A stretch of DNA of 33,953 nucleotides, from IMG/VR virus record IMGVR_UViG_3300030330_004825, positions 1 through 33,953 of that record. The stretch is one strand, 5' to 3'. How positions within the stretch are numbered: the first letter of the stretch is position 1; the number at the start of each line of letters is the position of its first letter. The translations under genes and the position numbers were made by a program. Below the pieces are notes generated by a model. The model had not been told where the DNA came from. It did not search any database and worked only from the letters and a program-made list of their open reading frames with translations. Shown piece after piece: positions 1,686 through 30,560 of this stretch. The stretch comes from a virus. Lineage: Duplodnaviria > Caudoviricetes.

Positions 1686-1754
1686 TTGACAAACACAGTC
1701 CGCAAGCTATAGTTTGGTATGCTTAAAGTTTATAGCATAAGGAGAAGCAAGATG
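1686..1754 (+). promoter_or_regulatory. Sigma70-like promoter + 5' hairpin + shared RBS box (cassette 1)
   Basis: TTGACA 1686-1691, 16 nt, TATAGT 1708-1713; TATGCT/AGCATA stem 1718-1739; GGAGAAGCAAGATG 1741-1754. Confidence 0.8.
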
Positions 1755-1985: not shown

Positions 1986-2002
1986 AAAATAAAAAGGAGT
2001 TA

Positions 2003-2039
2003 GCCAGTCTCCACAAAACTGGCAAGGAGAAACAAAATG
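2003..2039 (+). promoter_or_regulatory. Hairpin + shared RBS box
   Basis: GCCAGT/ACTGGC stem 2003-2023 followed by AAGGAGAAACAAAATG. Confidence 0.7.
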
Positions 2040-10648: not shown

Positions 10649-10649
10649 T

Positions 10650-12641: not shown

Positions 12642-12660
12642 CTATAGTATATTTAAAATT

Positions 12661-14001: not shown

Positions 14002-14019
14002 AAAAGGAGGGATATTATT

Positions 14020-14855: not shown

Positions 14856-15108
14856 AATGCTTGCCATGCTAGCTCAAGCTCCAGCCTTAGTTGTTATAGT
14901 CTGGCTAGTGATGAAACAAAATGGCAATGGTAATGGAAACGGAAACCAAGAACTCATCAGAGCCATTGCTAGGTCTTTAGAAAAATTAGCGGATGCCCAA
15001 AGAGAGGCAAACCAAATTGCAGATAAACGTGCAGAGGGATTTGAAAGATGGGTGGAGCTTCAAAGGACTCAGTGCCAACAACAATTCACATCAAGAAACC
15101 AAAAGTAG
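14845..15108 (+). CDS. Membrane-anchored coiled-coil protein with NG repeat
   Basis: ALVVIVWLVM TM segment, NGNGNGNGN linker, helical C-terminus. Confidence 0.6.
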   Translation: MESEMLAMLAQAPALVVIVWLVMKQNGNGNGNGNQELIRAIARSLEKLADAQREANQIADKRAEGFERWVELQRTQCQQQFTSRNQK

Positions 15109-15431
15109 ACTGGTCTGATTATCTTCTAGAACAAATAGTAAATTTTGGCGGTCTTCCAGAAATACCAATTAGAGAATATAAATTTCACCCGACGAGAAGA
15201 TGGAGATTTGATTTAGCTTTTATAGATCATAAATTAGCTATTGAAATTGAAGGAGGAGTTTGGATAAGAGGTAGACATACTCGTGGAAGTGGTTTTATTA
15301 GTGATATGGACAAATACAACAATGCTGTGTTACTATCTTGGTATATGTTAAGGTTTACACCTAACGACGTTAAAGTTGGAAAAGCGCTCCAGACCATCAA
15401 TAGCTTTTTCAAGGGAGAGTGTGTTGAATGA
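15048..15431 (+). CDS. PD-(D/E)xK endonuclease (Vsr/DUF559-like)
   Basis: EYKFHPTRRWRFDLAF...LAIEIEGG.W..GRH.RG.GF..D..KYN motif; start uncertain. Confidence 0.8.
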   Translation: MGGASKDSVPTTIHIKKPKVDWSDYLLEQIVNFGGLPEIPIREYKFHPTRRWRFDLAFIDHKLAIEIEGGVWIRGRHTRGSGFISDMDKYNNAVLLSWYMLRFTPNDVKVGKALQTINSFFKGECVE

Positions 15432-15630
15432 TGTAGATTTTCGAATTTGCATTAACACTTTATATGATTTGTTGCTTAAATTAAATTTTCGTACCCGCAC
15501 TATTAAGGATCAAGATGTCCAAATAATCATGAGGCAAGTTTTTGAAATCATGCAGGATATTAACGAGCATTACTATCAAAGCGACAGAGATAGTGTTAAG
15601 GTAGCGAATGAAGAAAAAGACATACACTAA
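15376..15630 (+). CDS. Hypothetical protein
   Basis: Fills the gap between nuclease and phosphoesterase; real start probably near 15421-15424 after GGGAG. Confidence 0.55.
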   Translation: MEKRSRPSIAFSRESVLNDVDFRICINTLYDLLLKLNFRTRTIKDQDVQIIMRQVFEIMQDINEHYYQSDRDSVKVANEEKDIH

Positions 15631-16402
15631 TAGAACAGTATTTTTGAGCGATATCCATATCCCTTACCAGGATAAAAAAGCTCTGGCACTGGCTATGGAA
15701 ATTATCAAAGATTTTATGCTTAAAGAAGATGACACCATAATTCTTGGTGGTGATCTAGTGGACTATTATCCTATAAGTTCGTTTAGTCCTGATTTAACAA
15801 ATTCAAATATAGATATAGAACTTTTTGAAACAACTGAGTTTTTAAATGATTTAAGAAAAATTGCATCAAAAGCAAATGTTATTTACTTCGAAGGAAATCA
15901 CGAACAAAGGATGCAAAAAAAAATAATGTCATCATGCAGTGCATTAGCTCCATTTTTGAAAAATAAATTATCAATCCGTGAATTATTAGAGTTTAGAAAA
16001 TTTAACATAAGAGAAGTTAAAACACCATTCAGTAGAAAAAAGAAATTGTATTTTATGCACGGTCATGAAAAAAGAGGTTTTATAACACCAAAACATATTG
16101 CTCACGTACATCTAAATTATACAAATAGAAATATTATAGTTGGTCATCATCATAGATTTGATATGTTCATAACAACACAAATGGATGGTTCATTATTAGG
16201 CGGCTGGTGTAACGGATGTTTATGTGATCTAACACAAATGCCAGATGGACTTTACACAGCATTCGATTCATCACAGCGTGGTTTTACTGTTGTTCACGAA
16301 AAAGGAAATGGATTATTTAGTGTCGACCAACATCTTTTCATACCAAACAAACAAAAAGGTTATGATTGTTTAGTTGCGGGAAAAGAATACGTTAGTCCAT
16401 AA
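15608..16402 (+). CDS. Calcineurin-like metallophosphoesterase
   Basis: SDIH, GGDLVD, GNHE, HGH and GHHH motifs. Confidence 0.9.
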   Translation: MKKKTYTNRTVFLSDIHIPYQDKKALALAMEIIKDFMLKEDDTIILGGDLVDYYPISSFSPDLTNSNIDIELFETTEFLNDLRKIASKANVIYFEGNHEQRMQKKIMSSCSALAPFLKNKLSIRELLEFRKFNIREVKTPFSRKKKLYFMHGHEKRGFITPKHIAHVHLNYTNRNIIVGHHHRFDMFITTQMDGSLLGGWCNGCLCDLTQMPDGLYTAFDSSQRGFTVVHEKGNGLFSVDQHLFIPNKQKGYDCLVAGKEYVSP

Positions 16403-16740
16403 AATTTAAAAGACAATATTTCAGCAATCTTTGATGCATGTTTTGTTCTTGCTTTCTTACGATAACTATCAGCTAACCATTTACCTTTGAGACCAACCTT
16501 AGAGCTTAAACCTTCCCAACTAAGTTTTTGTTCTTGTCGTAAAGAATTAACTATCATCCAAAAATCATCAGTGGTATAAGTGTATTTTTTTCTGTTCTCT
16601 TCTGCTAGCCTTGTTATTTCTGAAATATTTTTTTTATACAGCCGATGAATATATTGTTTTGAACATCCATATTCATCAGCAATCTTTTGAAAAGATTTTC
16701 CTTCTCTGAATCTTTTGTCAGCTATATCTTTAATATCCAT
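16360..16740 (-). CDS. HTH transcriptional regulator (two HTH-like segments)
   Basis: GKSFQKIADEYGCSKQYIHR and LRQEQKLSWEGLSSKVGL; only credible minus-strand gene; divergent from the early promoter; ATG 16740 preferred. Confidence 0.7.
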   Translation of the reverse strand: MDIKDIADKRFREGKSFQKIADEYGCSKQYIHRLYKKNISEITRLAEENRKKYTYTTDDFWMIVNSLRQEQKLSWEGLSSKVGLKGKWLADSYRKKARTKHASKIAEILSFKFYGLTYSFPATKQS

Positions 16741-16744
16741 GCCT

Positions 16745-16774
16745 CTAAAATATAACAAAGATTTTATTTGTCAA
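16745..16774 (-). promoter_or_regulatory. Leftward promoter for the HTH gene
   Basis: Minus-strand TTGACA (16774-16769) followed by TGTTATATTTT. Confidence 0.5.
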
Positions 16775-16814
16775 ATATTATAAAAGCCCTTTAGATAAAG
16801 GCTAATACTAGCAG

Positions 16815-16886
16815 TTGACAATATATGCCCACATTATATAATCTTACTATGCTTTTTATTTATAGCATAAGGAGAAACAAAAGATG
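16815..16886 (+). promoter_or_regulatory. Consensus sigma70 promoter + 5' hairpin + shared RBS box (main early operon)
   Basis: TTGACA 16815-16820, 16 nt, TATAAT 16837-16842; TATGCT/AGCATA stem 16848-16869; GGAGAAACAAAAGATG. Confidence 0.85.
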
Positions 16887-17204
16887 CAGAGACAGAGATT
16901 ACCAAAGTCTGATCTAACTGAGAAGCTCAGCTTGACTGATCTTAAAAATTTAGAGGACGAGATGGAATATATTTTATCCACTAACAACCAAAATTTTACA
17001 AGGGAGATAGTTTTTACCTACCAAGACAGAGTGGGGCTAAGCATTTATGTGGCTAATAAAGACATGGACATAGCTACCATGATGCACGAGGCCGAGCCAC
17101 TTTATAAGGTTAGATGCAAATTTATACACGCTAACTTATACGCTAAGATGCTAGGGATAACAAAAATAATACATATTAAACATCATTTTAGGAGTGTGAC
17201 ATAG
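16884..17204 (+). CDS. Hypothetical early protein
   Basis: 106-aa ORF with a strong SD. Confidence 0.75.
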   Translation: MQRQRLPKSDLTEKLSLTDLKNLEDEMEYILSTNNQNFTREIVFTYQDRVGLSIYVANKDMDIATMMHEAEPLYKVRCKFIHANLYAKMLGITKIIHIKHHFRSVT

Positions 17205-17205
17205 G

Positions 17206-17682
17206 ATGGCTTACCTAAAACGAAAAATAAAAACTGACCTGGCTAGGATTAGAGGCGACTACATATTTAACGATGGCGGTCGCCATAAATATTTTAAATT
17301 TAAAAAAACAGATGACTGCGTGGTCAGAGCGATAGCCATAGTCAGAGAGATGGATTACAAAAAAGTGCTTCACGAGATAACAGATTATTGTTTACAATAT
17401 GGAGCACCCTTTAGCTCAAAACTTATTATAGAAAAATATTTAGAAGCAACTGGGGCAATAAAACACAAAGTTAAACACCCTAAAGGTAGAAAAGCCAGAC
17501 CTAAAGATTTACCAAATGGTCGATGGATAACTAGCATGGCTCACCACCTAAGTGCAGTCATAAATAAAGTTCCTCACGACACTTGGAACACATCGGACAG
17601 GATGGTTTATACTTACTGGGGCTACCCTAAAAAACCAAAAGGAGGTGAAGACCATGAAGAGTTTCGAAACACACAAGCTTAG
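17206..17682 (+). CDS. Conserved phage protein, possible Cys-His peptidase-like fold
   Basis: DCVVRAIAI....Y..V and HLSAV.....DTW motifs. Confidence 0.6.
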   Translation: MAYLKRKIKTDLARIRGDYIFNDGGRHKYFKFKKTDDCVVRAIAIVREMDYKKVLHEITDYCLQYGAPFSSKLIIEKYLEATGAIKHKVKHPKGRKARPKDLPNGRWITSMAHHLSAVINKVPHDTWNTSDRMVYTYWGYPKKPKGGEDHEEFRNTQA

Positions 17683-17947
17683 TCTTTTAGTAGATGAGTA
17701 TCGTGCGCTCTCTCCCCAAGCCAAGCAGTGGGTTAAGGATAGGCACAGAAGTAAAAAACCCATCGAAATAAAAGAATGCAAATTTTGTTATAACGAAGGT
17801 TTTACAGAACACGCATTTGGCGAAGATGACTTTGAAAAAGAAATTTGTGAACATTGCGATAGCTTAGAGGTTAAGACTGCAATAAATATCCAAGATTGCA
17901 TCCATAACCTTTTTCAATATATGGCTATTAGATTAAGGAGGCATTAA
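17645..17947 (+). CDS. Hypothetical zinc-finger protein
   Basis: CKFC...CEHC; GGAGGTGA SD favours ATG 17654. Confidence 0.65.
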   Translation: MKTMKSFETHKLSLLVDEYRALSPQAKQWVKDRHRSKKPIEIKECKFCYNEGFTEHAFGEDDFEKEICEHCDSLEVKTAINIQDCIHNLFQYMAIRLRRH

Positions 17948-17948
17948 A

Positions 17949-18131
17949 ATGTATTTTCAAATAAGCTGTCTCAAATACTCTAGTAGATGGGACGGAAAAA
18001 GAAAAGGCTCAGGGTTTTTTAGAGATATGCATGATAAAAACCCTAAAGGCATGAAAAAGAAAAATAAAAACTCTGCTGAGTCAAGGAGAAAAAATGGCAC
18101 GGGAGGTAGGAAAAAAAATGAGTCAATCTAA
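17949..18131 (+). CDS. Small basic hypothetical protein
   Basis: AGGAGG upstream; Lys/Arg-rich, SRRKNG.GGR motif. Confidence 0.45.
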   Translation: MYFQISCLKYSSRWDGKRKGSGFFRDMHDKNPKGMKKKNKNSAESRRKNGTGGRKKNESI

Positions 18132-18315
18132 ATTTAATAAAATAAAGAATGATGATTTAAGAAGTCTATTGATGCGTTTAGATGCTGTAGCTATGAGTAA
18201 CAGTCATCTATGGAACACAATCATAGAAAAACAACAAAATACAAACGACATGTTAAGGAGGTTATTAAACGATGTCAGAAAACGCAAAACAAACAATAAT
18301 ATCGAAAGTGACTAA
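18094..18315 (+). CDS. Hypothetical protein
   Basis: Short helical ORF; GGAG-type SD before both 18094 and 18118. Confidence 0.6.
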   Translation: MAREVGKKMSQSKFNKIKNDDLRSLLMRLDAVAMSNSHLWNTIIEKQQNTNDMLRRLLNDVRKRKTNNNIESD

Positions 18316-18688
18316 AACCAGTCCATATGGATTCCAACTTGAATCTTTAGGTGACTCGTGGGTTAATTATGGAAAATTTTATGAGGGCGATAAGAATATA
18401 CAGGCTGGTCAAGAGTTAGTCGTGAATTGCACTAAGGTTGGTGATAAATATTATGTTAATCATATAGATCAAGGTGTTAAAGAAAACCCAGATAAGGCTG
18501 TTCAATATTTAGCTAATGACTTGGACACGCTTGAAATTCAACGTGATCCAAAGCAGAGGTTAATAGTTGCGCAGACAGCTCTTAAAGCTGCCAGTGAACT
18601 GTGTTCCGATGTGGTATCAACAAAAAAGGCGATGGCTGAACTTTATAATGAAGTGTGGCGATTAGCAGAGAGCGAGCCAGGTGAATAG
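18272..18688 (+). CDS. Possible ssDNA-binding (OB-fold-like) protein
   Basis: Aromatic-rich beta N-terminus (YG.Q......WVNY, KYY) and KQR.IV.Q.ALKAA helix; precedes the initiator. Confidence 0.45.
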   Translation: MSENAKQTIISKVTKTSPYGFQLESLGDSWVNYGKFYEGDKNIQAGQELVVNCTKVGDKYYVNHIDQGVKENPDKAVQYLANDLDTLEIQRDPKQRLIVAQTALKAASELCSDVVSTKKAMAELYNEVWRLAESEPGE

Positions 18689-19349
18689 AAATAAACCTAA
18701 TTATTATGGAATTATTCCTGCATCAGTTAGGTATGATCCAGAAATTCCTCATTTTGCTAAATTAATTTATGCAGAGATATCTGCATTGAGTAATAAAGAG
18801 GGATTTTGCTGGGCATCCAATGACTATTTTGCTTATGTTTTTGAAACAACTGCAAGGACTGTTCAAAGAGCTATTGAGGCTCTAGAGGCTCGAGGCTACA
18901 TAAGACGCCATATAGAGAATAAAACCTCAAGAAAAATATACATAAATATGACAGAAGTGTCACCTCCCTATGACAATTTTGTCATGGGTACTAACGACAA
19001 AAAAGTCGTACATAATAATACAAGTAATAATAATATAAATAATAATATAGCTTTTGAAAAATTTTGGAATATTATTAAAAAGAAAAAAAATAAAAATGAT
19101 GCTCGCAGGGCATTTGCAAAAATTAAGTGTGATTTAAAACCCGAGGAGCTTGCCGAAAGATATAACATGCAATTTAACACGAAAGATGCAAAATATGTGC
19201 CTTATCCCTCTAGGTGGCTTAGAAATGAATCTTGGAACGAATCTGCAGATGAGGAGAGGACACCTAATAATTTTTATAGAGGGGAGAAGATTTACAGAGA
19301 TGAAAAAGGGTTTATTATATCTAAGGAGGAACATGATAAATTAAATTGA
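18681..19349 (+). CDS. Phage replication initiator / replisome organiser (N-terminal HTH)
   Basis: YY.IIPA.VRYD, AKLIYAEI.ALSNKEG.CWASN.YFA and FE.FW..., PSRWL..E.W motifs. Confidence 0.85.
   Translation: MNRNKPNYYGIIPASVRYDPEIPHFAKLIYAEISALSNKEGFCWASNDYFAYVFETTARTVQRAIEALEARGYIRRHIENKTSRKIYINMTEVSPPYDNFVMGTNDKKVVHNNTSNNNINNNIAFEKFWNIIKKKKNKNDARRAFAKIKCDLKPEELAERYNMQFNTKDAKYVPYPSRWLRNESWNESADEERTPNNFYRGEKIYRDEKGFIISKEEHDKLN
18948..19050. repeat. Probable replication origin: three palindromic 16-mers + AT-rich tract
   Basis: ATGACAGAAGTGTCAC 18948, ATGACAATTTTGTCAT 18970, ACGACAAAAAAGTCGT 18994, then an AAT-repeat tract. Confidence 0.75.
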
Positions 19350-19383
19350 AAAAGGAGGTCGTTGGTATTAAACTAACTAGAGT

Positions 19384-19602
19384 ATGACAGACACAGAGGT
19401 ACAAGATACTCTTCTTAGCGATTCAGAAATTGCCACTAAATTAATAGCAGAAGCATTAAGAATATATTTGCCTCGCTACGTGGATGCAAAACTTTTACCT
19501 AGGCATAAAGCTATAGGACAAGAGTTGCAATCTAAGTATGAGGAAAAATATTGCAAAATACTATCTAAAAAAAATTTAGCGGGCGTTGGATATGCTGAGT
19601 AA
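19384..19602 (+). CDS. Hypothetical protein
   Basis: 72-aa ORF within the operon. Confidence 0.6.
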   Translation: MTDTEVQDTLLSDSEIATKLIAEALRIYLPRYVDAKLLPRHKAIGQELQSKYEEKYCKILSKKNLAGVGYAE

Positions 19603-20107
19603 AAGAGAGCCAGAATATTTAAACAACTTAATTGAAAGCCTTAGAAAAATAGACATCGCTCTTCTAAAGGGAAGACTTGAGCGTGGTCATATATTGTTAA
19701 TTTTGAAAGAAGAGAAACAATATGTAGGTTATGAAGGTTGGGTATCTACTTGGGATGACTTTTTAGATGTTATTTCAGTAGATAGAGAAACCGCACGCCA
19801 GGATATAAAAGTCTATGAAGAGTTCCATGTTTATTTATCTGAGCGACACGATCTAATATCTAAATGTAAATATGAAAGGTTAGTACGATTGCTTCCTTTA
19901 TTAAATAAAAAGCAAAGCAGCAAATCATCGGTCATTGACCTCCTTGAAATGGCCGCAAGAAGTAGTCGTACTGACTTCAACAATAATGTGAGAGAGCTAA
20001 AAGGTCAAACACCCACAGATACTTGTGATCATAAAAAAACTATAATTTTAGAAAGGTGTACAACTTGTGGCTTTACTTTTAGACGGAAGGACTTAGAGCT
20101 TGAATAA
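19586..20107 (+). CDS. Hypothetical DNA-binding protein with C-terminal Zn ribbon
   Basis: G..L..LKE...Y......TW.DFL; C.H.......C..CG. Confidence 0.6.
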   Translation: MDMLSKREPEYLNNLIESLRKIDIALLKGRLERGHILLILKEEKQYVGYEGWVSTWDDFLDVISVDRETARQDIKVYEEFHVYLSERHDLISKCKYERLVRLLPLLNKKQSSKSSVIDLLEMAARSSRTDFNNNVRELKGQTPTDTCDHKKTIILERCTTCGFTFRRKDLELE

Positions 20108-20684
20108 AATAATACTAGATTTATGTGGTGGCACAGGCTCTTGGAGTAAACCATATAAAGAAAATGGCTATGATGTTAGAGTTATAACTTTGCCCGATAA
20201 CGATGTTAGAGATTATGATCCACCTAAAAATGTTTATGGAATACTGTCTGCTCCACCATGCGACCAGTTTTCTTTTGCTAAAACCACAGGCGAGCCTAGA
20301 AAATTATTATCAGCCTGGAGCGTAGTAAGAGCCTGCTTAGATATAATAGCTAAATGTAACACTATAGAAACTCCCTATGCTAAAAAGACAACTCTAAATT
20401 TCTGGGCTTTAGAGAATCCTAATGGCTTGCTGAAGAGATTTTTGGGCAAACCCACATATGAATTCAACCCTTATGATTTTGGCGATGGCTATAAAAAGAA
20501 GACTTATCTGTGGGGCTGGTTTAAAAACCCAGTAAAAAAACCTATAGAGTGTAATAATGTAAAGTTTGATAGAATGAAGTCTAAAGACATACATAGTGAA
20601 TATTATGGTATTTTAACAAGAAAAGAAAGACGAGCTATAACTCCTAAAGGGTTTGCACGAGCTTTTTTCGAGGCTAACAGATGA
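20100..20684 (+). CDS. DNA cytosine-C5 methyltransferase-like protein (compact)
   Basis: ILDLCGGTG (motif I), APPC (IV), LENP (VI); ends R..TP.GFA.AF. Confidence 0.8.
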   Translation: MNKIILDLCGGTGSWSKPYKENGYDVRVITLPDNDVRDYDPPKNVYGILSAPPCDQFSFAKTTGEPRKLLSAWSVVRACLDIIAKCNTIETPYAKKTTLNFWALENPNGLLKRFLGKPTYEFNPYDFGDGYKKKTYLWGWFKNPVKKPIECNNVKFDRMKSKDIHSEYYGILTRKERRAITPKGFARAFFEANR

Positions 20685-20998
20685 GATATATAGAGAACGA
20701 TAAAATAATTATAAGTCATAGTTTGGAATATTTAGATTATGTCAGAACTTTAAATTGTTGTGTAACAGGCAGTTCTATGTCAGAGCCACATCACTTGGAG
20801 GCCTTAGGTATGGGCGCAAACAGAAAAAAACCAAATATGAAGCATTTTACTTGCGTGCCAGTATGCAGAGAAATACACACAGAGCTCCACGCTAAGGGCA
20901 TACATTATATGCAGGAGAAGTATCGTATTCAGTTTTGGCAAGAGGCATTTTATATATTAGCTAAATGGTTAATCACTAAAAAAGAGATTATAAGTTGA
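20681..20998 (+). CDS. HNH-like nuclease, DUF968/Ref-like
   Basis: YL.YVR.L.CCV.G....PHH and VPVCR..H.E.H motifs. Confidence 0.7.
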   Translation: MRYIENDKIIISHSLEYLDYVRTLNCCVTGSSMSEPHHLEALGMGANRKKPNMKHFTCVPVCREIHTELHAKGIHYMQEKYRIQFWQEAFYILAKWLITKKEIIS

Positions 20999-21022
20999 CA
21001 TTAGTTTACACGGAGGACTGTT

Positions 21023-22243
21023 ATGGACGTAGTATTAAAAAATATAAGTGAGGTCATACCTTATGCTAGAAACCCACGTAAAAACCAGGCGATAGACAAA
21101 GTCGCTGCATCTTTAAAAGAGTTTGGTTTTAGACAACCTATAGTGGTTGATAAAGAGATGGTTATTATAGCAGGACACACAAGATTTGCAGCAGCGCAGA
21201 AATTAGGCTTAAAAGAAGTCCCTGTGCATATAGCTGATAATATGACACCTGGACAGGTTAAAGCTTATAGGATAGCCGATAATCGAGTGGCACAGGACTC
21301 GGAGTGGGACTTAGCTATGCTTAACACAGAATTTACTGATCTATTAGATATAAATTTTGACTTAGATGTTCTGGGCTTTGATCCTAAAGAGCTAGAAGAT
21401 TTAATTGTCGATAAAGAAGGATTGACTGAAGATGATTGGACTCCTCCAATACCGCCTGAGCCACAGACTAAAGCGGGTGATTTATATATACTAGATAAGC
21501 ACAAACTTTTATGTGGCGATGCAACCAAAACCGAAGATGTCAGTAAATTGATGGGCGATAACCTAGCCGATCTTATAGTGACCGATCCTCCCTATAATGT
21601 TGCGTATGGAGGGGGCAGAGCGGCCCTTTCTAGCGCTCCTGGGGCTAGAGTTAAGGCACATGGGGCTATTATGAATGATGATATGACACCAGATGAGTTT
21701 AATATATTTATAGATAAATGCTTTGATAATTATCACAAATATTTAAAAGACCTGGCGTCAGTTTATGTTTTTCATGGTGATTCTAAGACCGAGGCAAAAA
21801 TAACGTTTGAAACTTATTTTGCAAAATATTTCACTAAGTCTTGCACACTTATTTGGAATAAAGGCTCAGCAGGTTTAGGATATAGTGATTATAGACCATC
21901 ACACGAGCCAATTTTATATGGTTGGAAAAAAGGAAAAGGCTCGCACTATTGGTGTGGCGACAAAACTAAAAAGACTGTTTTAGATTATAGCAAAGGCAAC
22001 ACTAGGGATTATGTGCATCCTACACAAAAGCCTGTCGGAATACTAACAGAATTAATAAAGAATAGTTCTAAAGGGCAAGATATAGTTATAGACTTTTTCT
22101 CTGGCTCTGGAAGCACTCTTATAAGTTGTGAAAAATTAGACAGAGTCTTTTTCGGATTAGAATATGATCCAAAATACTGCGATGTGATAATTAAAAGGTG
22201 GGAAGATTTTACAGGGAAAAAAGCTAAACTTGTACAAGACTAA
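21023..22243 (+). CDS. ParB-like N-terminal domain + N6A/N4C DNA methyltransferase (beta class)
   Basis: PYARNPR, FGFRQPIV and IIAGH.R; TDPPY precedes HPTQKP and DFFSGSGST. Confidence 0.92.
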   Translation: MDVVLKNISEVIPYARNPRKNQAIDKVAASLKEFGFRQPIVVDKEMVIIAGHTRFAAAQKLGLKEVPVHIADNMTPGQVKAYRIADNRVAQDSEWDLAMLNTEFTDLLDINFDLDVLGFDPKELEDLIVDKEGLTEDDWTPPIPPEPQTKAGDLYILDKHKLLCGDATKTEDVSKLMGDNLADLIVTDPPYNVAYGGGRAALSSAPGARVKAHGAIMNDDMTPDEFNIFIDKCFDNYHKYLKDLASVYVFHGDSKTEAKITFETYFAKYFTKSCTLIWNKGSAGLGYSDYRPSHEPILYGWKKGKGSHYWCGDKTKKTVLDYSKGNTRDYVHPTQKPVGILTELIKNSSKGQDIVIDFFSGSGSTLISCEKLDRVFFGLEYDPKYCDVIIKRWEDFTGKKAKLVQD

Positions 22244-22263
22244 AAAAGGTTTATATTAATTAT

Positions 22264-22641
22264 ATGAGAACACCAAAAGTTAGTGACGAAAAATTAGCAG
22301 AACTATTATTAAAATATAATGGTATCAAAGAAGTTACGGCTAGAGCTGCAGGGATGTCCAGACAAAATTTACATAAAAGAATAGCTAACTCAGAGCTCCT
22401 TCAAGAGTCTGCATCCGAAGGCAAAGAGCGAACATTAGATTTAGCAGAGGCCAAACTAATTCAAGCTCTTAATAGTGGTGAGAACTGGGCTATAAGATTC
22501 ACGCTTGAAAAATTAGGTGGTGAAAGAGGTTATGCCTCCACACATAATGTGAATCAAAATAGTAAAGTCATCAATATTATTGAAGTGCCAGAGTTGAGTG
22601 CCTATGAGCCAAGCATTGATGAAATTAAAGACCTCAACTAA
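22264..22641 (+). CDS. Terminase small subunit (probable)
   Basis: N-terminal HTH (TARAAGMSRQ), DLAE.KL and AI.F.L...G..RGY; immediately upstream of TerL. Confidence 0.75.
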   Translation: MRTPKVSDEKLAELLLKYNGIKEVTARAAGMSRQNLHKRIANSELLQESASEGKERTLDLAEAKLIQALNSGENWAIRFTLEKLGGERGYASTHNVNQNSKVINIIEVPELSAYEPSIDEIKDLN

Positions 22642-23971
22642 CAGCATATGGAAGCCAACCAAAAAGCAGCTTGAGTTTCTTAAAACAGGAAACATCTTTG
22701 AAGTTGCTTATCTAGGCGGGGCTGGTTCAGGCAAGTCATCTGTTCTACTTATTGATGCGTGTAGACAGATGATGTACCCAGACGCTAAAGCAGTAATATT
22801 TAGAAGAACAACTCGAGAGCTTAGACAGCTTATAGATTATAGTTTTAAAATATATAAAGAATTAGGAGCTATATTTAAAATCCAAGAGTCCTGTTGGATA
22901 TTTCCTAGCGGTGGTAAAATATTCTTTTCGCATATGGAAACTGAGATGGATAAGTTTCAACACGATGGACAAGAATATTCTGCTGGTGTTTATTTTGATG
23001 AAATAACACATTTTAGTGAATCCCAATATCTTTATCTTCACTCTAGAGCCAGGAGTACAAATAAAAACGTTTTTCCTAGAATAAGATGCACTGGCTCACC
23101 TGTGGGAAAACATATAGATTGGATTAGAAAAAGATTTATAAAAAATGGAGCTTATGTTATACATAGAGATGAGGACACTAATTTATCTAGATTATATATT
23201 CCTGCAACCTTAGATGATAATCCTTATCTAATGCTGAATGATCCACAGTATGAATCTAGATTAAAACTGCAGGGCAACAAATTATACCAGGCTTTAAGGT
23301 TTGGTGACTTCTCTCAAATAGAAGGTGTATGCTTTCCTGAAATAACTCAGCATCATATTTTGGATAGTTTCACACCCACTAGCGGTCAAACAATCATTAG
23401 AGGTTTTGACTGGGGTTTCACAGCGCCATTCGCAACTCTGTGGTTAGCTGAAACACCTGATAAAGATTTAGTGGTCTTTAAGGAATGGATAGGAACTAAA
23501 GATGGAGACAATAAAGGGCTAATGATGTCTGCTGACCAAGTTGCTAAAACTATAAAAATTATAGAAGAAAAAAATAACATAGCTCCATACTTTGCGCCTA
23601 GTGATCCAGCCATTTGGGGAAAGCAAAATGTTGGTGATTCTATTGGTGAGATATTTCAAAATAACGGGTTGCTTATGGAACGAGCAAATAACGATCGTAT
23701 TATGGGAACGCAACAACTTCATATGAGATTGACTATTAATGATCTAACTTCAAAACCTAAATTATTTTTTACCAAAGATTGTCCTATAACTTTGCAGGCG
23801 ATGCAAAATATACAAGTGGACAAAAGAAATCCAGAAGTATATGACACCACAGGCTTTGACCACCCTGTGGATGCTTTGCGCTATGCGGTGATGGCCAAAA
23901 CCCTTATACAGGGCGATGTTTACGAGCCAGAGTCTTTTGGTGAAAGAGAGACCGATAGCCAAATCTTTTAA
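22598..23971 (+). CDS. terL: Terminase large subunit
   Basis: GGAGSGKS Walker A, YFDE Walker B, GFDWGF and DH..DALRY nuclease motifs; start may be 22604 or 22619. Confidence 0.95.
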   Translation: MPMSQALMKLKTSTNSIWKPTKKQLEFLKTGNIFEVAYLGGAGSGKSSVLLIDACRQMMYPDAKAVIFRRTTRELRQLIDYSFKIYKELGAIFKIQESCWIFPSGGKIFFSHMETEMDKFQHDGQEYSAGVYFDEITHFSESQYLYLHSRARSTNKNVFPRIRCTGSPVGKHIDWIRKRFIKNGAYVIHRDEDTNLSRLYIPATLDDNPYLMLNDPQYESRLKLQGNKLYQALRFGDFSQIEGVCFPEITQHHILDSFTPTSGQTIIRGFDWGFTAPFATLWLAETPDKDLVVFKEWIGTKDGDNKGLMMSADQVAKTIKIIEEKNNIAPYFAPSDPAIWGKQNVGDSIGEIFQNNGLLMERANNDRIMGTQQLHMRLTINDLTSKPKLFFTKDCPITLQAMQNIQVDKRNPEVYDTTGFDHPVDALRYAVMAKTLIQGDVYEPESFGERETDSQIF

Positions 23972-23972
23972 G

Positions 23973-24045
23973 TTGACAAAGTATGCCTATAGTATAGTAT
24001 GTATAGTGTAGCCTAAATAAACAAGCTACAAGGAGAAACAAGATG
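23973..24045 (+). promoter_or_regulatory. Sigma70-like promoter + 5' hairpin + shared RBS box (cassette 3)
   Basis: TTGACA 23973-23978, 16 nt, TAGTAT 23995-24000; TGTAGC/GCTACA stem 24007-24030; GGAGAAACAAGATG. Confidence 0.8.
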
Positions 24046-24282
24046 CATATAGCACTAAAAAAATTAAAGGAAGAACAACTAAAAGATTTTTCAATACAAG
24101 ATCTATTAGATTTATCTTTTTACCTTAAAGAGGATTTATCAGAAGTAACCAAAAATGATTACAAAGATTATGATGAATATGAAAGGTATGAAAAGAAGCA
24201 AATAAAAATAAAAACTAATTTAGATTTAGTTTATGACTTATATGCTAGAAAGCTAGTAGAGGAGAAACAAAATGAAAGATAG
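24043..24282 (+). CDS. Hypothetical protein
   Basis: 79 aa, strong SD. Confidence 0.75.
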   Translation: MHIALKKLKEEQLKDFSIQDLLDLSFYLKEDLSEVTKNDYKDYDEYERYEKKQIKIKTNLDLVYDLYARKLVEEKQNER

Positions 24283-24613
24283 AATTAACTTACCAGACGA
24301 GATTATTAAGATGAATAACTTCGAAGACCTTATGAGACTGCAACTACACTTTGAAATATTAAAGGATGCTTCCTGGAACATGACAGGGGACGATTTTTGG
24401 ACTTACTGCATGAAGCCTTGGAAAGAAGGAGTCTACGACTCTTACACCACAGAGAAATTCTTAATTTTTCAAAAAAACCCAATAGACTATATAACTAGCT
24501 TATCGGGAAACGCCTTGTATCATACTTTAACAGGATTACAAAAATGGTACGAATGGAGGCAGGTAAGAATAATTAACAGAGTAAAAGTAAATTTATATGA
24601 GGTGAAAAAATGA
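24272..24613 (+). CDS. Hypothetical protein
   Basis: 113 aa, preceded by GGAGAAACAAAATG. Confidence 0.75.
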   Translation: MKDRINLPDEIIKMNNFEDLMRLQLHFEILKDASWNMTGDDFWTYCMKPWKEGVYDSYTTEKFLIFQKNPIDYITSLSGNALYHTLTGLQKWYEWRQVRIINRVKVNLYEVKK

Positions 24614-24849
24614 AGGACAAATTTTTTATAGAATTAGAGTTTGAGTTTGATGAAGATGACGATAATAATGAAATCTTTATAAACTGGGTGACTGCGAAAA
24701 AAAATTATTTAGTAAAAAAAGAACAAAAAGAAGTAAATTTAGATAATTTTAAAAACGCTTTACTTAGACACCTTCATGATTTTTTGCATGACGACTTAGG
24801 ATGCAACTATAAATTAACTAGAATGGGAGGTAAAAGAGAACAAGGATAG
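24610..24849 (+). CDS. Hypothetical acidic protein
   Basis: GAGGTG SD, ATGA overlap. Confidence 0.65.
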   Translation: MKDKFFIELEFEFDEDDDNNEIFINWVTAKKNYLVKKEQKEVNLDNFKNALLRHLHDFLHDDLGCNYKLTRMGGKREQG

Positions 24850-25515
24850 ATGGGACATTTTAAAAATTTAGCTCTAGAGAAAGAAAGAAAATCTCTAGAG
24901 CTTTTTTGTGGAACAAAAAGCTTTACTAAAATTGCATCTAACTTTGGTTTTGAAACGATGACTCTAGACTCTGAGGAAGAGTTTTCTCCAGATATATGTT
25001 GCAATATTTTAGATTTTGATATAGAGATGCTTGACGGTTTTAAACCAGATGTAATATGGGCAAGCCCTCCCTGCACTAAATTTAGCGTTGCATCTATGGG
25101 ACATCACTGGATAAAAGAAGGCGAAGTAAGAACACCTAAAAGCCAGGGGGCTGTAGAAGCTATTAAAATTATTGTAAAAACAGTTGAAATAATAAAGGCT
25201 CTTAAACCTAAATTTTTATATATAGAAAACCCTAGAGGTATGCTTAGAAAATTAGATTTAATCCCTTGGCCTAAAGTCACTGTAACTTATTGTCAATATG
25301 GCTTCACTTATATGAAACCAACTGATATTTGGTCTAATAATTATAGCTGGCAAAGATGGCACGCTAAATCTTGCAAGTATGGTGATCCATGTCACGAGCC
25401 TGCGCCTAGGGGCTCAAAGGCGGGCATCCAGGGATTAAAAAGTGCAAAAGAAAAGGGTGTTATTCCACCCAATCTAATAAATGAAATTTTAGTATCCACG
25501 GAGCAACTTTTATGA
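24850..25515 (+). CDS. Second DNA cytosine-C5 methyltransferase-like protein
   Basis: LELFCGT (I), WASPPC (IV), IENP (VI), YCQYG...KPTDIW. Confidence 0.82.
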   Translation: MGHFKNLALEKERKSLELFCGTKSFTKIASNFGFETMTLDSEEEFSPDICCNILDFDIEMLDGFKPDVIWASPPCTKFSVASMGHHWIKEGEVRTPKSQGAVEAIKIIVKTVEIIKALKPKFLYIENPRGMLRKLDLIPWPKVTVTYCQYGFTYMKPTDIWSNNYSWQRWHAKSCKYGDPCHEPAPRGSKAGIQGLKSAKEKGVIPPNLINEILVSTEQLL

Positions 25516-25730
25516 TTTTTTACGAAGTATCGTTTGCTGAAATAGAAAAACTGTTTCCAGAAGCAACTCATGAGGAACGACTGATTGCTTATTATTTTAT
25601 GCATTTCACTCCATCTAGGCATAAAGAGATAGGCAATCTGCACTTGTCTTATGAGGTTGCTATGAGACATATGTTTGACTGGGCGCAGTATTTTAAGTCT
25701 ATTAATAAGTATACAGGCAAGCGTCATTAA
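25512..25730 (+). CDS. Hypothetical protein
   Basis: GGAG SD, ATGA overlap. Confidence 0.6.
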   Translation: MIFYEVSFAEIEKLFPEATHEERLIAYYFMHFTPSRHKEIGNLHLSYEVAMRHMFDWAQYFKSINKYTGKRH

Positions 25731-25741
25731 GGTATATTCTT

Positions 25742-25793
25742 AGAGGGTGGCTAATCTAACCTAGATTTTGTTTCTCCAAACATGCCACCCTTT
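25742..25793 (+). ncRNA. Candidate trans-acting antisense sRNA against the shared early RBS
   Basis: AGAGGGTGGC/GCCACCCTTT closing stem, inner AATCTA/TAGATT hairpin, ATTTTGTTTCTCC (25765-25777); TATATT at 25733-25738 just upstream. Confidence 0.6.
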
Positions 25794-25834
25794 CTGATTG
25801 ATTTTATAACTTTATTCATTTACTATTTATTCAA

Positions 25835-28666
25835 ATGGCTGTGCTCGACGATTTCGTTAAAATATTTCAAGAAGAAACTAAACCAGAGATGTCTGAACTT
25901 GCCGCATCTGATTATTCTTTATATAACAAAAATGGTGAAATAGCGCCATATAATCCAGATACATTAGTTGGTAGAAAAGGCCTTTATATGTACGACCAGA
26001 TGAGGATTGATGATCAGGTAAAAGCTTGCTTAACTCTTAAAAAGTTTGCAACTTTAGCTCCTAGTTTTCAGATTATACCTGCCTCGGATGATAGTCAGGA
26101 TATAGAAGTTGCTGAGTTTGTAGAATATTGTTTCGAAAAGATGCAAGGAAATATGACTGACACAGTTTTAGAAATTATGACAGCCTTGGACTTTGGTTAT
26201 TCAATATCCGAAATAAATTATAAAGAATTTGACACGGGAATCCACAGAGGTAAAATAGGGCTTAAAAATATCAAAACTAAACAGCCTCATTACTATCAGT
26301 TTGTTATAGATGAATACTCTAACCTTTTAGACGATGGTATTTTATACCAGGGCAGGGGTTTAGAAGAACGATATCCAATTAATAAATTTATAATATTTAG
26401 TTATCAAAAAGAGTTTGGCAATCATTATGGAACATCAGATTTAAGACCTGCTTATCGAGGTTATTGGTCAAAAGATGTCCTTATAAAAATGTGGAACATT
26501 TATTTAGAAAGATTCGCTAACCCAACAGTTTTAGGGAAGTATAAAACTAATGATCCATCTGCAAGAAACTCTTTAAGAAATATTTTAGATAACCTTACTG
26601 CTAAAACATCTATTACTCACAGGATGGATGAATTTGACATCCAGCTTTTGGAATCTGGTAGAAATGCAACTAACGACTTTGAAAGAGCGCTTAATTTTTA
26701 TAATAAATCTATTGCCAGGTCTATTCTTATTCCAGATAGACTTATGGCCGAGGGTGACACTGGCGCTTATGCGCAGGCCAAAATACACTTTGATGTTTTT
26801 CTATTTGTTATACAAAAACTCAGGTTAGATATCGAAGAGAATGTGATGCAACAACAATTAATAAGAAGATTAGTTGCATATAATTATTCTAATGTTGAGA
26901 GTTTGCCGATGTTTAAGTTCAACCCTATGACAGACGAACAAAAATTCCAGCTTAATAGTTTGTTTATAGATGCAGTTCAAAAAGGTGTTATATCACCTAC
27001 TCTTGAAGATGAAAACATACTTAGACAGAATCTTAACTTCCCAGAAAAAGATATTGAGCCAGACACACCAGAAAATCAAATAACAGAAGAGGCCGACGAG
27101 GAAGAGATAGCAGATATTTCAGAAAACAGTTATTCACAAGTTGATCTAAGGCCGACAAAAGAAATGCAGGCAGAAGGCGAGAGAGCTTTAGAATGGAGGA
27201 GAGAGTTTGGTAGAGGCGGAACTGAGGTAGGAATAGCTAGAGCTGCTCAACTTAAAAATAGAGAAAATCTTTCACCTAGCACTGTTAAACGTATGAAAAG
27301 CTTTTTTGCTAGGCACGAAGTTGATAAAAAAGCAAAAGGTTTTCGAGTAGGCGAAGAGGGCTATCCTAGTAATGGTCGCATAGCTTGGTCTATGTGGGGC
27401 GGAGATGCTGGTCAAAGATGGTCAAATTCTAAAGTGGATGAGCTAGAAAGAAAAAGCGCCAGCAATCAGCAAGACGCAAAAGAATATCAATCCGCACGAG
27501 ACAAAACCTTACAAAATAAAGTTGATAAGCATAATGAAAAATATGGAAACACAAAAACTAAAAAAACAAATTTAAGGACACTTCGTTCTGTGTATAATCG
27601 TGGGATTGGAGCCTATAGAGGGAATCCCAGTAGCGTTAGGCCAACAGTGACTTCTAAAGAGCAGTGGGCTATAGCTAGAGTTAACTCTTATCTTTTTGCT
27701 TTACGCAACGGCAGATTCCGTAGCGGCAAGCACGACACAGACTTATTTCCTAAAGGACATCCTTTATCTAGTAAAAAAAAAACTAACTCTTATCAATATA
27801 GACCAAGTGGCGCTGAGAGAAGAGTCAACTTTAAAAAAATAGCTAATGATCTAGAAACTCTCGAAACTAGGTTTTTAGATCAGGCTAGAAAAGTTATGCT
27901 TAAACAACAAGATGGTGTGATAAAATACGTTGAAAATAAAATGAAAAAACAAGCTTTAGACTTCAAAGCAGTCGAAAACTTAGAGCTTAAAAATAAAGGT
28001 GAGCTTAAAACAGTTTTTCAAGATGGGTATAAAGCATCTTTTGATGTAGGCAAGGAAACTGCTGACAAAGACCTTCCTAAAAATTTTGCAACTGCCGACG
28101 TCGGTGTTGGTCTGTCGACAGCTGAGTTAGAATCCTATTTATTAGGCGAAGCTAGGTTCGAAGTGCAGGAAATAGTTAATCAACTTAACCCACGAGTTCG
28201 TCGAGTTTTGCTCGATGGTATAAAAACAGGAAAATCAACTAGCGATATAATTAAAGGTATCACAGGGGCTTTTGCTCCTTTCGTGGCCGATGGAACAGAA
28301 ATATCTGTGAGCACTGGTCGTGAACTAGAGGCTTATAATTTAAGAACTATCACTAGAACTGCTACGTTAGGCGCATACAATTTTGGTCGTAGATCAAGAT
28401 ATGAGGATAAAGATTTAGAGGGTTTTGTTTTAGGTTATAAGGTTTCACCAGTGTTAGATGAAAGAACATCTGATATTTGTAATCAGATAGCCCTAGATAA
28501 CGTGCAAATTAAAATAAACGATAAAGAATCTATATCTAGATTAACACCACCGCTACACTATAATTGCAGAACTATTTTAGTCCCTCTTACACCTGAAGAT
28601 GAGCCAATAGCTTTTTCTAATCAGGAGGTTTTAGGTAAAATAAAAGGTCTAGTGAAGGTTGTATGA
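25835..28666 (+). CDS. Portal (DUF935/Mu gp29-like) fused to two inserted domains and a C-terminal MuF head morphogenesis domain
   Basis: GYSISEI, YG.S.LR..Y, W..YLERFA.P..LGKY and G.YA.A.IH portal motifs; C-terminal DERTS.IC and PPLHYNCR MuF motifs; single 943-aa frame. Confidence 0.88.
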   Translation: MAVLDDFVKIFQEETKPEMSELAASDYSLYNKNGEIAPYNPDTLVGRKGLYMYDQMRIDDQVKACLTLKKFATLAPSFQIIPASDDSQDIEVAEFVEYCFEKMQGNMTDTVLEIMTALDFGYSISEINYKEFDTGIHRGKIGLKNIKTKQPHYYQFVIDEYSNLLDDGILYQGRGLEERYPINKFIIFSYQKEFGNHYGTSDLRPAYRGYWSKDVLIKMWNIYLERFANPTVLGKYKTNDPSARNSLRNILDNLTAKTSITHRMDEFDIQLLESGRNATNDFERALNFYNKSIARSILIPDRLMAEGDTGAYAQAKIHFDVFLFVIQKLRLDIEENVMQQQLIRRLVAYNYSNVESLPMFKFNPMTDEQKFQLNSLFIDAVQKGVISPTLEDENILRQNLNFPEKDIEPDTPENQITEEADEEEIADISENSYSQVDLRPTKEMQAEGERALEWRREFGRGGTEVGIARAAQLKNRENLSPSTVKRMKSFFARHEVDKKAKGFRVGEEGYPSNGRIAWSMWGGDAGQRWSNSKVDELERKSASNQQDAKEYQSARDKTLQNKVDKHNEKYGNTKTKKTNLRTLRSVYNRGIGAYRGNPSSVRPTVTSKEQWAIARVNSYLFALRNGRFRSGKHDTDLFPKGHPLSSKKKTNSYQYRPSGAERRVNFKKIANDLETLETRFLDQARKVMLKQQDGVIKYVENKMKKQALDFKAVENLELKNKGELKTVFQDGYKASFDVGKETADKDLPKNFATADVGVGLSTAELESYLLGEARFEVQEIVNQLNPRVRRVLLDGIKTGKSTSDIIKGITGAFAPFVADGTEISVSTGRELEAYNLRTITRTATLGAYNFGRRSRYEDKDLEGFVLGYKVSPVLDERTSDICNQIALDNVQIKINDKESISRLTPPLHYNCRTILVPLTPEDEPIAFSNQEVLGKIKGLVKVV

Positions 28667-28839
28667 CAGCCACTAATTCGATAGCCTCATACACTCAAAA
28701 TCACTTATTTGCAACACAAATTAAAAATAATGCATTTAGATGTTTGAAATGCAACAAATTATTAGCTAAAATAAACTCTAAGGGACTTCTCGCTGGACAA
28801 ATAAAATGTCCAAGGTGTGGTCAGATAAATGAGGTTTAA
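28663..28839 (+). CDS. Mu Com-like zinc-ribbon protein (58 aa), not in ORF track
   Basis: ...FRCLKCNKLLAKINSKGLLAGQIKCPRCGQINEV matches the Com pattern RC..CNKLL...I.CPRC; ATGA overlap with the portal stop. Confidence 0.8.
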   Translation: MTATNSIASYTQNHLFATQIKNNAFRCLKCNKLLAKINSKGLLAGQIKCPRCGQINEV

Positions 28840-28841
28840 GG

Positions 28842-30560
28842 ATGCCATTTAAAACTGAACATGCTGCAAGAATCCAAACCACTTCTGGTGTGACAAATAT
28901 TAGAAGGGTAAAAGGCCTCGATGACGGTGTAAGTGCCATAGTTGGGACTAAAAACGGAAAGGGTGTTGAAGTCAGCATCCGATTCGACAAAACGAAGTTC
29001 TCAGAAACTCGAGCAAAAAAATGGCTTGAGGATAATAATTACAAGCCAATAAAATTTGAACCAGCTATTTCTGGTCAGGGAGATTACAAAATGCCTTATC
29101 ACACAGATAAAAAAAAGAAAGAGAAGGACATGATGGAGGAAGAAGAAAAAGAAATGGAAATACCAAATCCTAATTCTCCAGATAAAATGCAAAAAGAAAA
29201 ATATGCAATGGATGACCTCTACACCAATAGAGAAGAAGCAGAAAAAGCTGCTCCAGCTATGGGTTTAGAAGGCTCTCACACTCATCAACATAGAATAGAT
29301 GGAGAAAATGTTGAGTTCTTTATGCCTGGTAAAAATCATGAAGAGTATCTAAAAGCTAAAGCAGAAATGGAAGCTAAGCAAAATGAAGATAAAGAAAAAG
29401 ATATGATGGATAAAGACAGAGAAGAAAAAATGGAAGATGAAGATAAAAAGATGGAAGATGAGGATGAGAAAGAAAAGAAAATGTCTAAAGGTGAAGATTG
29501 CGATTGTGATAATGATATAGAAGTTTGTGATGATAGTTGCGAAGATGATCCTAAAAATTATGATTATAATCAAACTTTTAATATAGATGGCGTTGAAATT
29601 TTCTCCACTGGTGTTTGGAATGGAGATAAATATGCCAAAAAAGATTTAGAGGCTATGGTGACTAACTTTGGTAAAACAGGGTTTGAGCCGCCTATTAAAT
29701 TAGGTCATAATGAAGACCAACCAGAAATGAAAGATGGCGAGCCAGCATTAGGCTATATAGACAAAATATATACTGCTGGCAACAAATTATTAGCAGATTT
29801 TAAAGAAATTCCACAAGTTTTATACGATGCTATGAAGCGTGGAAATTATAAAAGAGTTAGTTCTGAGATTTATTGGAACTACACAAACAATGGCTCTGTA
29901 CTTGATAGAGTTCTGAAGGCTGTTGCTATACTTGGCACTGAGATTCCAGCGGTTACAAATCTTGAAGCAATCGAGAATCTGTACGCAAAATCTGATGAAA
30001 GCCAGGGCGAAACTAAACTATATTATTCACCCAAGGAGAGTGAGCTTATGGAAAAAGATATTACGAAAGAATATCAAGCTTTACAGGATAAAATTAAATC
30101 CTTAGAAAAAGCTAATGCCGTAGCAAACGAGGAACTCGAAAAATCACGCACAGAGAAAAAAGAAGCATTGATCAGCCAATTTATTTCTGAGCAGAAAAAA
30201 GAAGGTAAAATATTACCATCATTCGAAAAACAACTGTTTGCGCTTTTAAGTTCCACAACTGATAAAAAAGTTTATAGTTACTCAAAAGATGATGAAACTA
30301 TAGAATTATCACAAAGAGAACTTTTACAAGAAGTAGTTACTAAACTACCAAAATTAATTGAGTTTGCAGAGATATCTGCAGAAGGCGAGTTTATTATCGA
30401 TAGACAACCTTATAATAGAGCAGGGGACGAAGTTGATAGAAGAGCCCAGCTTTATATTAAACATGGCAAAGTTGAAAAGTATGAAGACGCTGTCAGGTTG
30501 GTTTTAAAAGAAGATAAAGACCTACACACAGAGTATGCAAACGAACAAGTACAAAAATAG
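28842..30560 (+). CDS. Capsid maturation protease/scaffold (Mu gpI-like) with long N-terminal extension
   Basis: VEIF.TG.W, PIKLGH, PALGYI, YKRVSSEI and AVAILG...PAV..L motifs; C-terminal coiled-coil scaffold. Confidence 0.8.
   Translation: MPFKTEHAARIQTTSGVTNIRRVKGLDDGVSAIVGTKNGKGVEVSIRFDKTKFSETRAKKWLEDNNYKPIKFEPAISGQGDYKMPYHTDKKKKEKDMMEEEEKEMEIPNPNSPDKMQKEKYAMDDLYTNREEAEKAAPAMGLEGSHTHQHRIDGENVEFFMPGKNHEEYLKAKAEMEAKQNEDKEKDMMDKDREEKMEDEDKKMEDEDEKEKKMSKGEDCDCDNDIEVCDDSCEDDPKNYDYNQTFNIDGVEIFSTGVWNGDKYAKKDLEAMVTNFGKTGFEPPIKLGHNEDQPEMKDGEPALGYIDKIYTAGNKLLADFKEIPQVLYDAMKRGNYKRVSSEIYWNYTNNGSVLDRVLKAVAILGTEIPAVTNLEAIENLYAKSDESQGETKLYYSPKESELMEKDITKEYQALQDKIKSLEKANAVANEELEKSRTEKKEALISQFISEQKKEGKILPSFEKQLFALLSSTTDKKVYSYSKDDETIELSQRELLQEVVTKLPKLIEFAEISAEGEFIIDRQPYNRAGDEVDRRAQLYIKHGKVEKYEDAVRLVLKEDKDLHTEYANEQVQK

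Follow-up and report, generated by a model that had tools for sequence, protein, structure and literature searches.

The ribosome-binding sites (RBSs) of non-structural genes in Cluster K mycobacteriophages carry 13-bp Start-Associated Sequences (SAS), and four K1 phages contain a single reversed SAS site that is not tied to a gene start (PMC3203893). The text available from that 2011 study left open whether RNA or protein binds SAS, and the accessible parts of reports from 2024-2025 still term these sequences ill-defined (PMC11373665, PMC12699233). As far as the available text of four sources goes, SAS/ESAS of Cluster K and of Microbacterium cluster EF are characterized by an over-conserved RBS box that is found at non-structural genes, in one orientation, and with a single reversed copy (PMC3203893, PMC7302621, PMC11373665, PMC12699233), features that are shared by the phage DNA analysed here. 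SAS differ from the box of this phage in sequence, host phylum and G+C, and the likeness is one of analogy, not homology. Cluster K also displays 17-bp ESAS inverted repeats, according to the available text of PMC3203893, whereas our phage has a different box with a short hairpin or pseudoknot upstream.

The window, i.e. the whole stretch of 33,953 nucleotides under analysis, holds the genome of an uncultured tailed phage, circular and essentially complete, with a terminal repeat of 98 nt, a G+C content of ~35% and nearly all genes on the plus strand. Protein family matches identify portal, protease, capsid, tail, terminase and replication initiator genes, and three strong sigma-70-type promoters (1686, 16815 and 23973) open three cassettes between the structural blocks, whose early genes are mostly orphans. 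Matches of the portal protein to named phages are distant (at most 34% among the 20 matches listed; 415 of 415 below 60%), and the names of capsid homologues are uninformative as to host. The sole convincing minus-strand gene (16360-16758) is HTH-like and points away from the strongest early promoter; outgroup relatives have comparable divergent genes at the same place. Directly after the portal gene lies a Com-like zinc-ribbon gene (28663-28839; PHROG 'translational regulator'), and relatives have a comparable 58-aa gene after the portal; the Com-like product may be a protein partner in the control of translation. For many late genes (2677, 5500, 7898, 11001, 12661, 22264 and 25835), the start seems to be leaderless, with a -10-like hexamer 6-8 nt 5' of the ATG and no Shine-Dalgarno (SD) sequence. 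At the end of early cassette 1, a 7-bp GC stem surrounds ~55 nt and is followed by a U run (2574-2650); the wider region folds no better than shuffled sequences. The features on which the argument bears are listed in Table 1.

Table 1. Positions of the features discussed; coordinates are those of the window unless a locus is named.
Feature	Position	Strand	Remark
Sigma-70-type early promoter, cassette 1	1686..1713	+	consensus 11/12
Target box 1	1741..1753	+	cassette 1 lead gene, ATG 1752; 13 bp, two G·U
Predicted H-type pseudoknot	1996..2023	+	ends 2 nt 5' of target box 2; covarying stems kept in relatives
Target box 2	2026..2038	+	gene 2037-2567, second gene; 13 bp perfect
Sigma-70-type early promoter, cassette 2	16815..16842	+	consensus 12/12
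Target box 3	16871..16882	+	replication cassette lead gene 16884-17204; 12 bp
Sigma-70-type early promoter, cassette 3	23973..24000	+	consensus 10/12
Target box 4	24032..24044	+	lead gene 24043-24282; 13 bp, one G·U
Target box 5	24261..24273	+	gene 24272-24613, second gene; 13 bp perfect
Candidate promoter of the RNA	25710..25738	+	putative; weak -35; -10 TATATT at 25733-25738
Structured RNA element, predicted small-RNA body	25742..25793	+	10-bp closing helix around two weak hairpins
Anti-RBS segment	25765..25777	+	CUCC (25774-25777) as exposed tetraloop, likely pairing seed
Separate candidate promoter, leaderless portal message	25798..25826	+	putative; -35 at 25798, -10 at 25821, ATG 8 nt on
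Portal/head-morphogenesis gene	25835..28666	+	directly downstream of the element; without SD; not a predicted target
Reversed-SAS hairpin loci, Cluster K	L282 29871-29883 (Anaya); L285 28836; L297 1183 (Adephagia); L288; L295; L296

The element directly upstream of the portal gene folds at -18.6 kcal/mol (z -4.55), a stability reached by none of 200 shuffles. A preliminary description made from the letters of this DNA had credited it with a closing stem of 10 bp, and 10 possible pairs, one of them G·U, are indeed present around an interior of 32 nt; the TATATT box reported just upstream is also in place, next to a poor -35. The same description had put most of the 13-mer complementary to the RBSs in the loop. 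This does not hold, since the predicted ensemble leaves only CUCC and U25768 unpaired, the remainder lying within two weak hairpins. CUCC is unpaired at 0.94-1.00 and opening the whole 13-mer costs 3.8 kcal/mol, and the motif is thus better seen as a seed loop on a weak hairpin than as an open loop. A descriptor scan returned this element and no other in the window, with no match in 10 random sequences. Intrinsic terminators (GC stem, 3-8-nt loop, at least 5 U) look different from the element, which has a long interior and a run of 3 U and was not called by the scan. Rfam gave no match at the element; its two weak matches in the window at E<=1 are unrelated and lie elsewhere.

The 13-mer GGAGAAACAAAAT occurs exactly at 2026-2038 (+), at 24261-24273 (+) and, within the element, at 25765-25777 (-), while an exact antisense copy on the plus strand has an expected count of 0.0006 under an order-2 Markov model. 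The box recurs with one mismatch at 16871 and 24032 and with two at 1741. Both the exact reverse complementarity to two boxes and the pairing over 12-13 nt at the three others (two G·U at 1741, 12 bp at 16871, one G·U at 24032) had been correctly noted before. When 53 start regions were ranked by accessibility-corrected energy, the five sites took ranks 1-5, as the preliminary description had predicted, with -8.2 to -10.6 kcal/mol against -5.2 for the next one; 44 of the 53 yielded no passing helix, and no site outside the five boxes pairs equally well in the whole genome. The five best complements are found 1.5-24 kb from the element in window coordinates. No Pfam match was obtained for the five target genes, nor any PHROG match for four of them or for the 1752 gene, which was scanned separately.

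Some details of the preliminary description need amendment. The targets had been presented as lead genes of their cassettes, which applies to the three that follow the promoters at 1686, 16815 and 23973 and not to 2037 and 24272, which are second genes; the box at 1741 belongs to the ATG at 1752 and not to that at 1719. The late starts at 8813, 30571 and 30953 do bear GGAGAT, as described. Deviations of the boxes had been said to be A-to-G changes tolerated by wobble, a pattern that is found in this genome and is lost across the clade, where the single deviations are A>G 5, A>T 4, A>C 1, C>A 7 and C>T 1; a clade-wide wobble bias was accordingly rejected.

The stem-loop is found just 5' of the portal gene in 23/23 close viral relatives, next to unrelated upstream genes, and its loop reads GTTTCTCC in 16/23 and is another pyrimidine loop in 7; further loci with the element were retrieved from metagenomes. 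As MAFFT failed to hold both stem arms in register, pairs were counted in a hand-set 8-bp register over 18 distinct elements, excluding L013 as well as L224, a near-duplicate, and only a sequence model was built, which recovers no type other than GTTTCTCC and passed over L013, the phages with variant loops and the outgroup. In this register, 138/144 cells of the closing stem are paired and changes on both sides affect 5/8 stem columns. Helix-internal G·U outnumber A·C by 18 to 2 in the same elements, a ratio biased upward by the G·U-permissive search that picked the stems; such an excess fits an RNA of the plus strand, not a DNA palindrome. In the window alone, folding does not tell the two strands of the element apart (-19.5 kcal/mol for the minus strand), so the argument about the strand rests on the relatives. 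A -10-like hexamer stands 5-10 nt 5' of the stem in 13/18 elements (exact TATAAT in 6/18, with a weak -35) and 19-23 nt 5' of it in the other five. The portal start, which lacks an SD, would be served by a promoter-like site distinct from this one. Pattern searches were less productive: a scan of viral contigs for the stem start and loop yielded, apart from a single known element, mainly ordinary start sites read on the reverse strand, and the descriptor scan across relatives failed to pick up the G006 element and returned six additional matches that are probably spurious. Taken from sequence, the element is real, conserved, as the preliminary description had expected of its loop and stem, and biased to the plus strand, and it very probably is a structured RNA.

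The exact copy of the box on the minus strand could also be read as a DNA-level operator for an HTH protein or as the decayed RBS of a lost minus-strand gene, the latter having been put forward in the preliminary description as a finding that would overturn its own proposal. In the L022/L005 lineage, an ATG does follow the reversed box and opens 26-32 codons. A usable start codon is missing in 10/12 cases, with an ATG behind the reversed box in 2/12 and a GTG with a frame of 3-7 codons in 2/12, and a conserved minus-strand gene was rejected because no frame is conserved there. Besides, stem changes are compensatory or G·U, the orientation is always antisense, the matches start exactly at the SD and the loop changes follow SD types. 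We consider both forms of this explanation highly improbable.

In a portal tree of 32 rows, the 19 phages with the pre-portal element form one clade (100/98), and the 13 others lack it at this position. Most outgroup phages carry instead a GC stem with an anti-SD interior directly 5' of the replication initiator gene (12 distinct sequences). Conversely, no element was seen at the pre-initiator position in 10 pre-portal phages, and none is present at the pre-portal position in the portal outgroup. This mutual exclusion suggests that the element behaves as a movable unit; homology of the two positions is deduced from anatomy and mutual exclusion, not from alignment. That it takes its own -10 box along makes it less likely to be a cis leader of the portal gene. 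No element was detectable in G003, a relative whose genome is complete. A scan of intergenic regions passed over the element of the window owing to its coding filter. Second stem-loops with anti-SD-like interiors were noticed in G005 (L055, near its start) and in L223 (about 8913-8980), and some phages may carry two such RNAs.

The position of the element invites a purely local explanation, in which it would be the terminator or 3' stabiliser of the upstream cassette, its loop pairing with start sites within its own transcript, or an attenuator of the initiator gene. It stands at the end of cassette 3 with a short run of U behind it, two of the five targets belong to that cassette, and the initiator RBS just downstream is often complementary in the outgroup. 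Three targets nevertheless belong to separate transcription units, at a distance of 9-24 kb in window coordinates; the only gene upstream of the element in L020 and L222 carries an RBS that does not match, and the boxes are elsewhere; and several outgroup phages have a further promoter-like site between the element and the initiator. With the -10 hexamer of its own and an interior unlike that of a standard terminator, action in cis is quite unlikely.

If the RNA acts in trans, its loop should fit the start sites of the phage that encodes it. Start sites of the form GGAGAA[AG]C account for 31/128 in GTTTCTCC-loop phages, 2/62 in variant-loop phages and 1/132 in the outgroup, which serves as a 'different loop' group because most of its members carry an equivalent pre-initiator element. 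In L223, whose loop ends with ACCUCC, GGAGGTA is found at 5/18 sites compared with 0/128 in GTTTCTCC-loop phages. In the same vein, four GGAGGTCA sites match the loop of G004, and the lead gene of G012 matches over 9 nt. The fit was quantified by crossing 20 loops with 20 genomes, using the mean of the best three start sites, double centring and permuted pairs. Own loop-genome pairs outperformed permuted ones (p=0.001 over 15 loop types, 0.013 among 8 pre-initiator phages and 0.03 among 6 pre-portal phages), values to be read in the light of related, non-independent lineages, of several loci that are partial genomes and of start codons chosen by SD-likeness, which biases the counts. The co-variation of loop and box that the preliminary description had proposed to look for is therefore visible, with some loops fitting their own phage poorly (L225 rank 12/20, L273 13/20, L032 14/20, L232 10/20). 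On the whole, the targets of the RNA are probably start sites of its own phage.

Some early genes are preceded by a compact predicted pseudoknot of the H type, which has an A-rich loop and stops 0-2 nt short of the SD. Such pseudoknots precede 14/256 start sites in phages with the pre-portal element, compared with 1 in shuffled sequences and 0/171 in the outgroup, again counted as a different-loop group, and both of their stems covary (SDs at L001 6044, L005 1095, L219 9126, L232 7574 and 7816, L223 8374 and L225 9597). They recall the pseudoknot in the leader of T4 gene 32, as mentioned in the accessible text of PMC3014915, but precede unrelated genes and, in the window, have no Rfam match.

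A like element is present in an unrelated phage family with different genes. Its stem-loop, which has a -10 box (L300 about 6469-6517, minus strand; L304 18984-19032), carries a loop that matches one start site of the same family over 14 nt, AUG included. This family (L298-L314) harbours a hypervariable array of small genes, each of which starts with GGAGAAACAAAATG, the same box as here (e.g. L305 3756-4405 and L298 958-1595); these genes are shuffled between genomes ahead of a conserved nucleotide-kinase-like gene, and the box may be a recombination joint. Up to four genes per fragment bear the GGAGAAACAAAATG box, the loop of the family fits another start site, and no antisense copy of GGAGAAACAAAATG was seen in fragments up to 72% complete, no complete genome having been found. 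A box can thus occur in the absence of a loop that fits it. In another unrelated phage, L315 (G037 10000-29900), the minus strand bears six copies of the box GGAGAAAC, most of them after a repeated promoter-like leader, and no antisense copy of GGAGAAAC was seen in the 20 kb examined.

These boxes bear on the idea that the RNA is a general anti-SD agent directed mainly against messages of the host or of co-infecting phages, the box being merely a favoured strong RBS or a recombination joint. The identical box on the shuffled cassette genes of the unrelated family, with no matching loop, speaks for it, as do the pairing of the RNA of the window with starts of that family at about -14.8 kcal/mol, the L225, L227 and L273 loops that have no strong targets of their own, and the ordinary anti-SD ACCUCC in many outgroup loops. 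It accounts poorly for the significant preference of loops for their own genome, for a pairing of 12-13 bp that extends far past the SD core and for a box frequency that follows the loop type, and we regard it as improbable.

The genes predicted as targets differ between phages; those of the relatives encode, among others, an amidoligase, a protein with DUF932 and the replication initiator. Because the targets are unrelated genes that vary in this way, the antitoxin-like role offered by the preliminary description as an alternative finds no support, and a type I antitoxin was rejected. Late genes are largely spared: only 2/102 of their SD-bearing starts pair at -10 kcal/mol or better, compared with 74/277 for other genes. 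Foreign loops at the same cut-off give 3.7% for late and 11.8% for other genes, which indicates that late avoidance is partly general while the excess on non-late genes is specific to the own loop. An SD core is absent from 103/205 late genes and 163/398 other genes. The sparing of late genes lends indirect support to the early-to-late switch that the preliminary description had suggested.

It is well established that RNAs covering an SD sequence block translation initiation. We propose as a rather likely explanation that a trans-acting small RNA occludes the RBSs of early genes and so serves as an early-gene brake under which late genes would still be translated. A promoter of its own, of the host sigma-70 type, would make an RNA of ~55 nt, whose GC-rich closing stem would protect it and lead to its accumulation. 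The exposed CUCC would seed on the GGAG core and zip to 12-13 bp over the spacer up to the AUG. Exclusion of the 30S subunit by this pairing would then brake the synthesis of early and replication proteins, and late genes would escape because they are leaderless or bear GGAGAT. The central idea of the preliminary description, an RNA that pairs with early RBSs, thus came through the computational checks, stripped of its antitoxin alternative and of its general wobble argument.

The reversed SAS of Cluster K lends itself to the same analysis. In 6 of the 14 Cluster K phages examined (Anaya, CrimD, Adephagia, Niklas, Nanz197 and Enkosi; only the right halves being used for Anaya, CrimD, Pixie and TM4), it forms the loop of a GC-rich stem, with a mean unpaired value of 0.94-0.99, compared with 0.11-0.84 when this 9-mer is placed at 14 control positions of Anaya. 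The anti-SAS loop is absent from TM4, Pixie, Keshu, Marshawn and Yuna, K2/K3 lacking it, and AnnaSerena has 10 SAS and no reversed copy. The loop is degenerate in Amohnition, Amgine and TClif, and Amgine retains consensus SAS sites. A 171-nt stretch around the reversed SAS finds matches in 150 phage records. In Adephagia, the reversed SAS lies between genes 92 and 93, a gap in which late transcription appears to start according to the available text of PMC11373665. In Nanz197 (L296 1-169), an annotated reverse transcriptase gene stands directly 5' of the gap with the anti-SAS hairpin. As a hairpin loop situated in the right-end gap, at the apparent origin of late transcription, the reversed SAS makes the idea testable in culturable phages on M. 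smegmatis, and by analogy it would likewise be the counterpart of the anti-RBS loop of the window.

The same RNA and the same pairing could also serve another purpose, that of an immunity or copy-number repressor, similar to c4 or CI, which would keep a carrier or plasmid-like state quiet. The initiator gene is a predicted target (at -10 kcal/mol or better) in 5/8 pre-initiator phages and in L232, the promoter looks host-read and could be constitutive, the divergent HTH gene adjoins the main early promoter, and c4 and CI RNAs are described as acting in this manner in the accessible text of PMC5320573 and PMC4825925. No integrase was found among the 55 plus-strand and 3 minus-strand proteins scanned in the window, nor any capsid relative in genome_contigs; the sparing of late genes would count most with the RNA around while late genes are expressed; and the Cluster K analogue sits at the apparent start of late transcription. 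A repressor of this kind therefore seems unlikely to us.

Returning to the early-gene brake, the recurrence of box and loop in separate phages opens a broader perspective that we advance only tentatively. An RNA-addressed regulon may have evolved repeatedly, in which an extended RBS box tags dispersed early and replication genes and one stem-loop RNA silences them all at the early-to-late transition, with no protein repressor involved; the SAS of K1 phages would be the same device, and new genes would join by gaining the box. The shut-off of early genes is poorly understood in small phages that lack a polymerase or sigma factor of their own; T4 relies for it in part on the protein nuclease RegB, and one RNA reading a shared address box on dispersed starts would, if true, be an RNA-only solution. 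It would also supply a mechanism for Start-Associated Sequences, and it gives a sequence-only rule for finding such RNAs together with their regulons.

To conclude, the element can be placed among the RNA and protein regulators described in other phages. No report of a phage RNA complementary to a box common to its own dispersed early genes was found in the literature covered, most subscription journals being outside its scope, and the element was not found among the candidate RNAs in six supplementary files of PMC10690425. The predicted outcome resembles that of T4 RegB, which, in the available text of PMC3014915, inactivates early messages at GGAG SDs with an A-rich extended consensus and spares late ones. 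RegB is in contrast a protein endoribonuclease, its family gave no match in the PHROG scan of the window, and the box found here departs from its consensus at positions 7-8. The CI RNA of P4 is, as far as the accessible text tells, also a small phage RNA that silences replication genes of its own phage by pairing (PMC4825925), but it acts by premature termination through flanking seqA and seqC in one transcript, whereas the element complements start sites in separate transcription units. It resembles RBS-blocking small RNAs in general by a predicted exposed seed that can pair with RBSs far away (-8.2 to -10.6 kcal/mol net). The closest parallel is the c4 RNA of phages P1 and P7 (RF01695), a phage-encoded, trans-acting structured RNA whose loops occlude RBSs and in which changes of loop and target set specificity, as described in the available text of PMC5320573 and PMC2864571. 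c4 consists of three stem-loops (P1-P3) over about 77 nt with a 5' end made by RNase P, while the element has one closing stem, a variable interior and a length of 38-114 nt; c4 targets the antirepressor message via its a' and b' loops, while the element is directed to dispersed unrelated early genes sharing a box, and the protein scans of the window gave no match to the antirepressor family. Membership of c4 or of any Rfam family was rejected, no covariance model matching at the element. The working feature of c4, i.e. an RBS-occluding loop that co-varies with its targets, is found here computationally. With its computationally supported pairing to several RBSs, the predicted RNA can be regarded as a variation on the trans-acting antisense RNAs of phages that work like c4.
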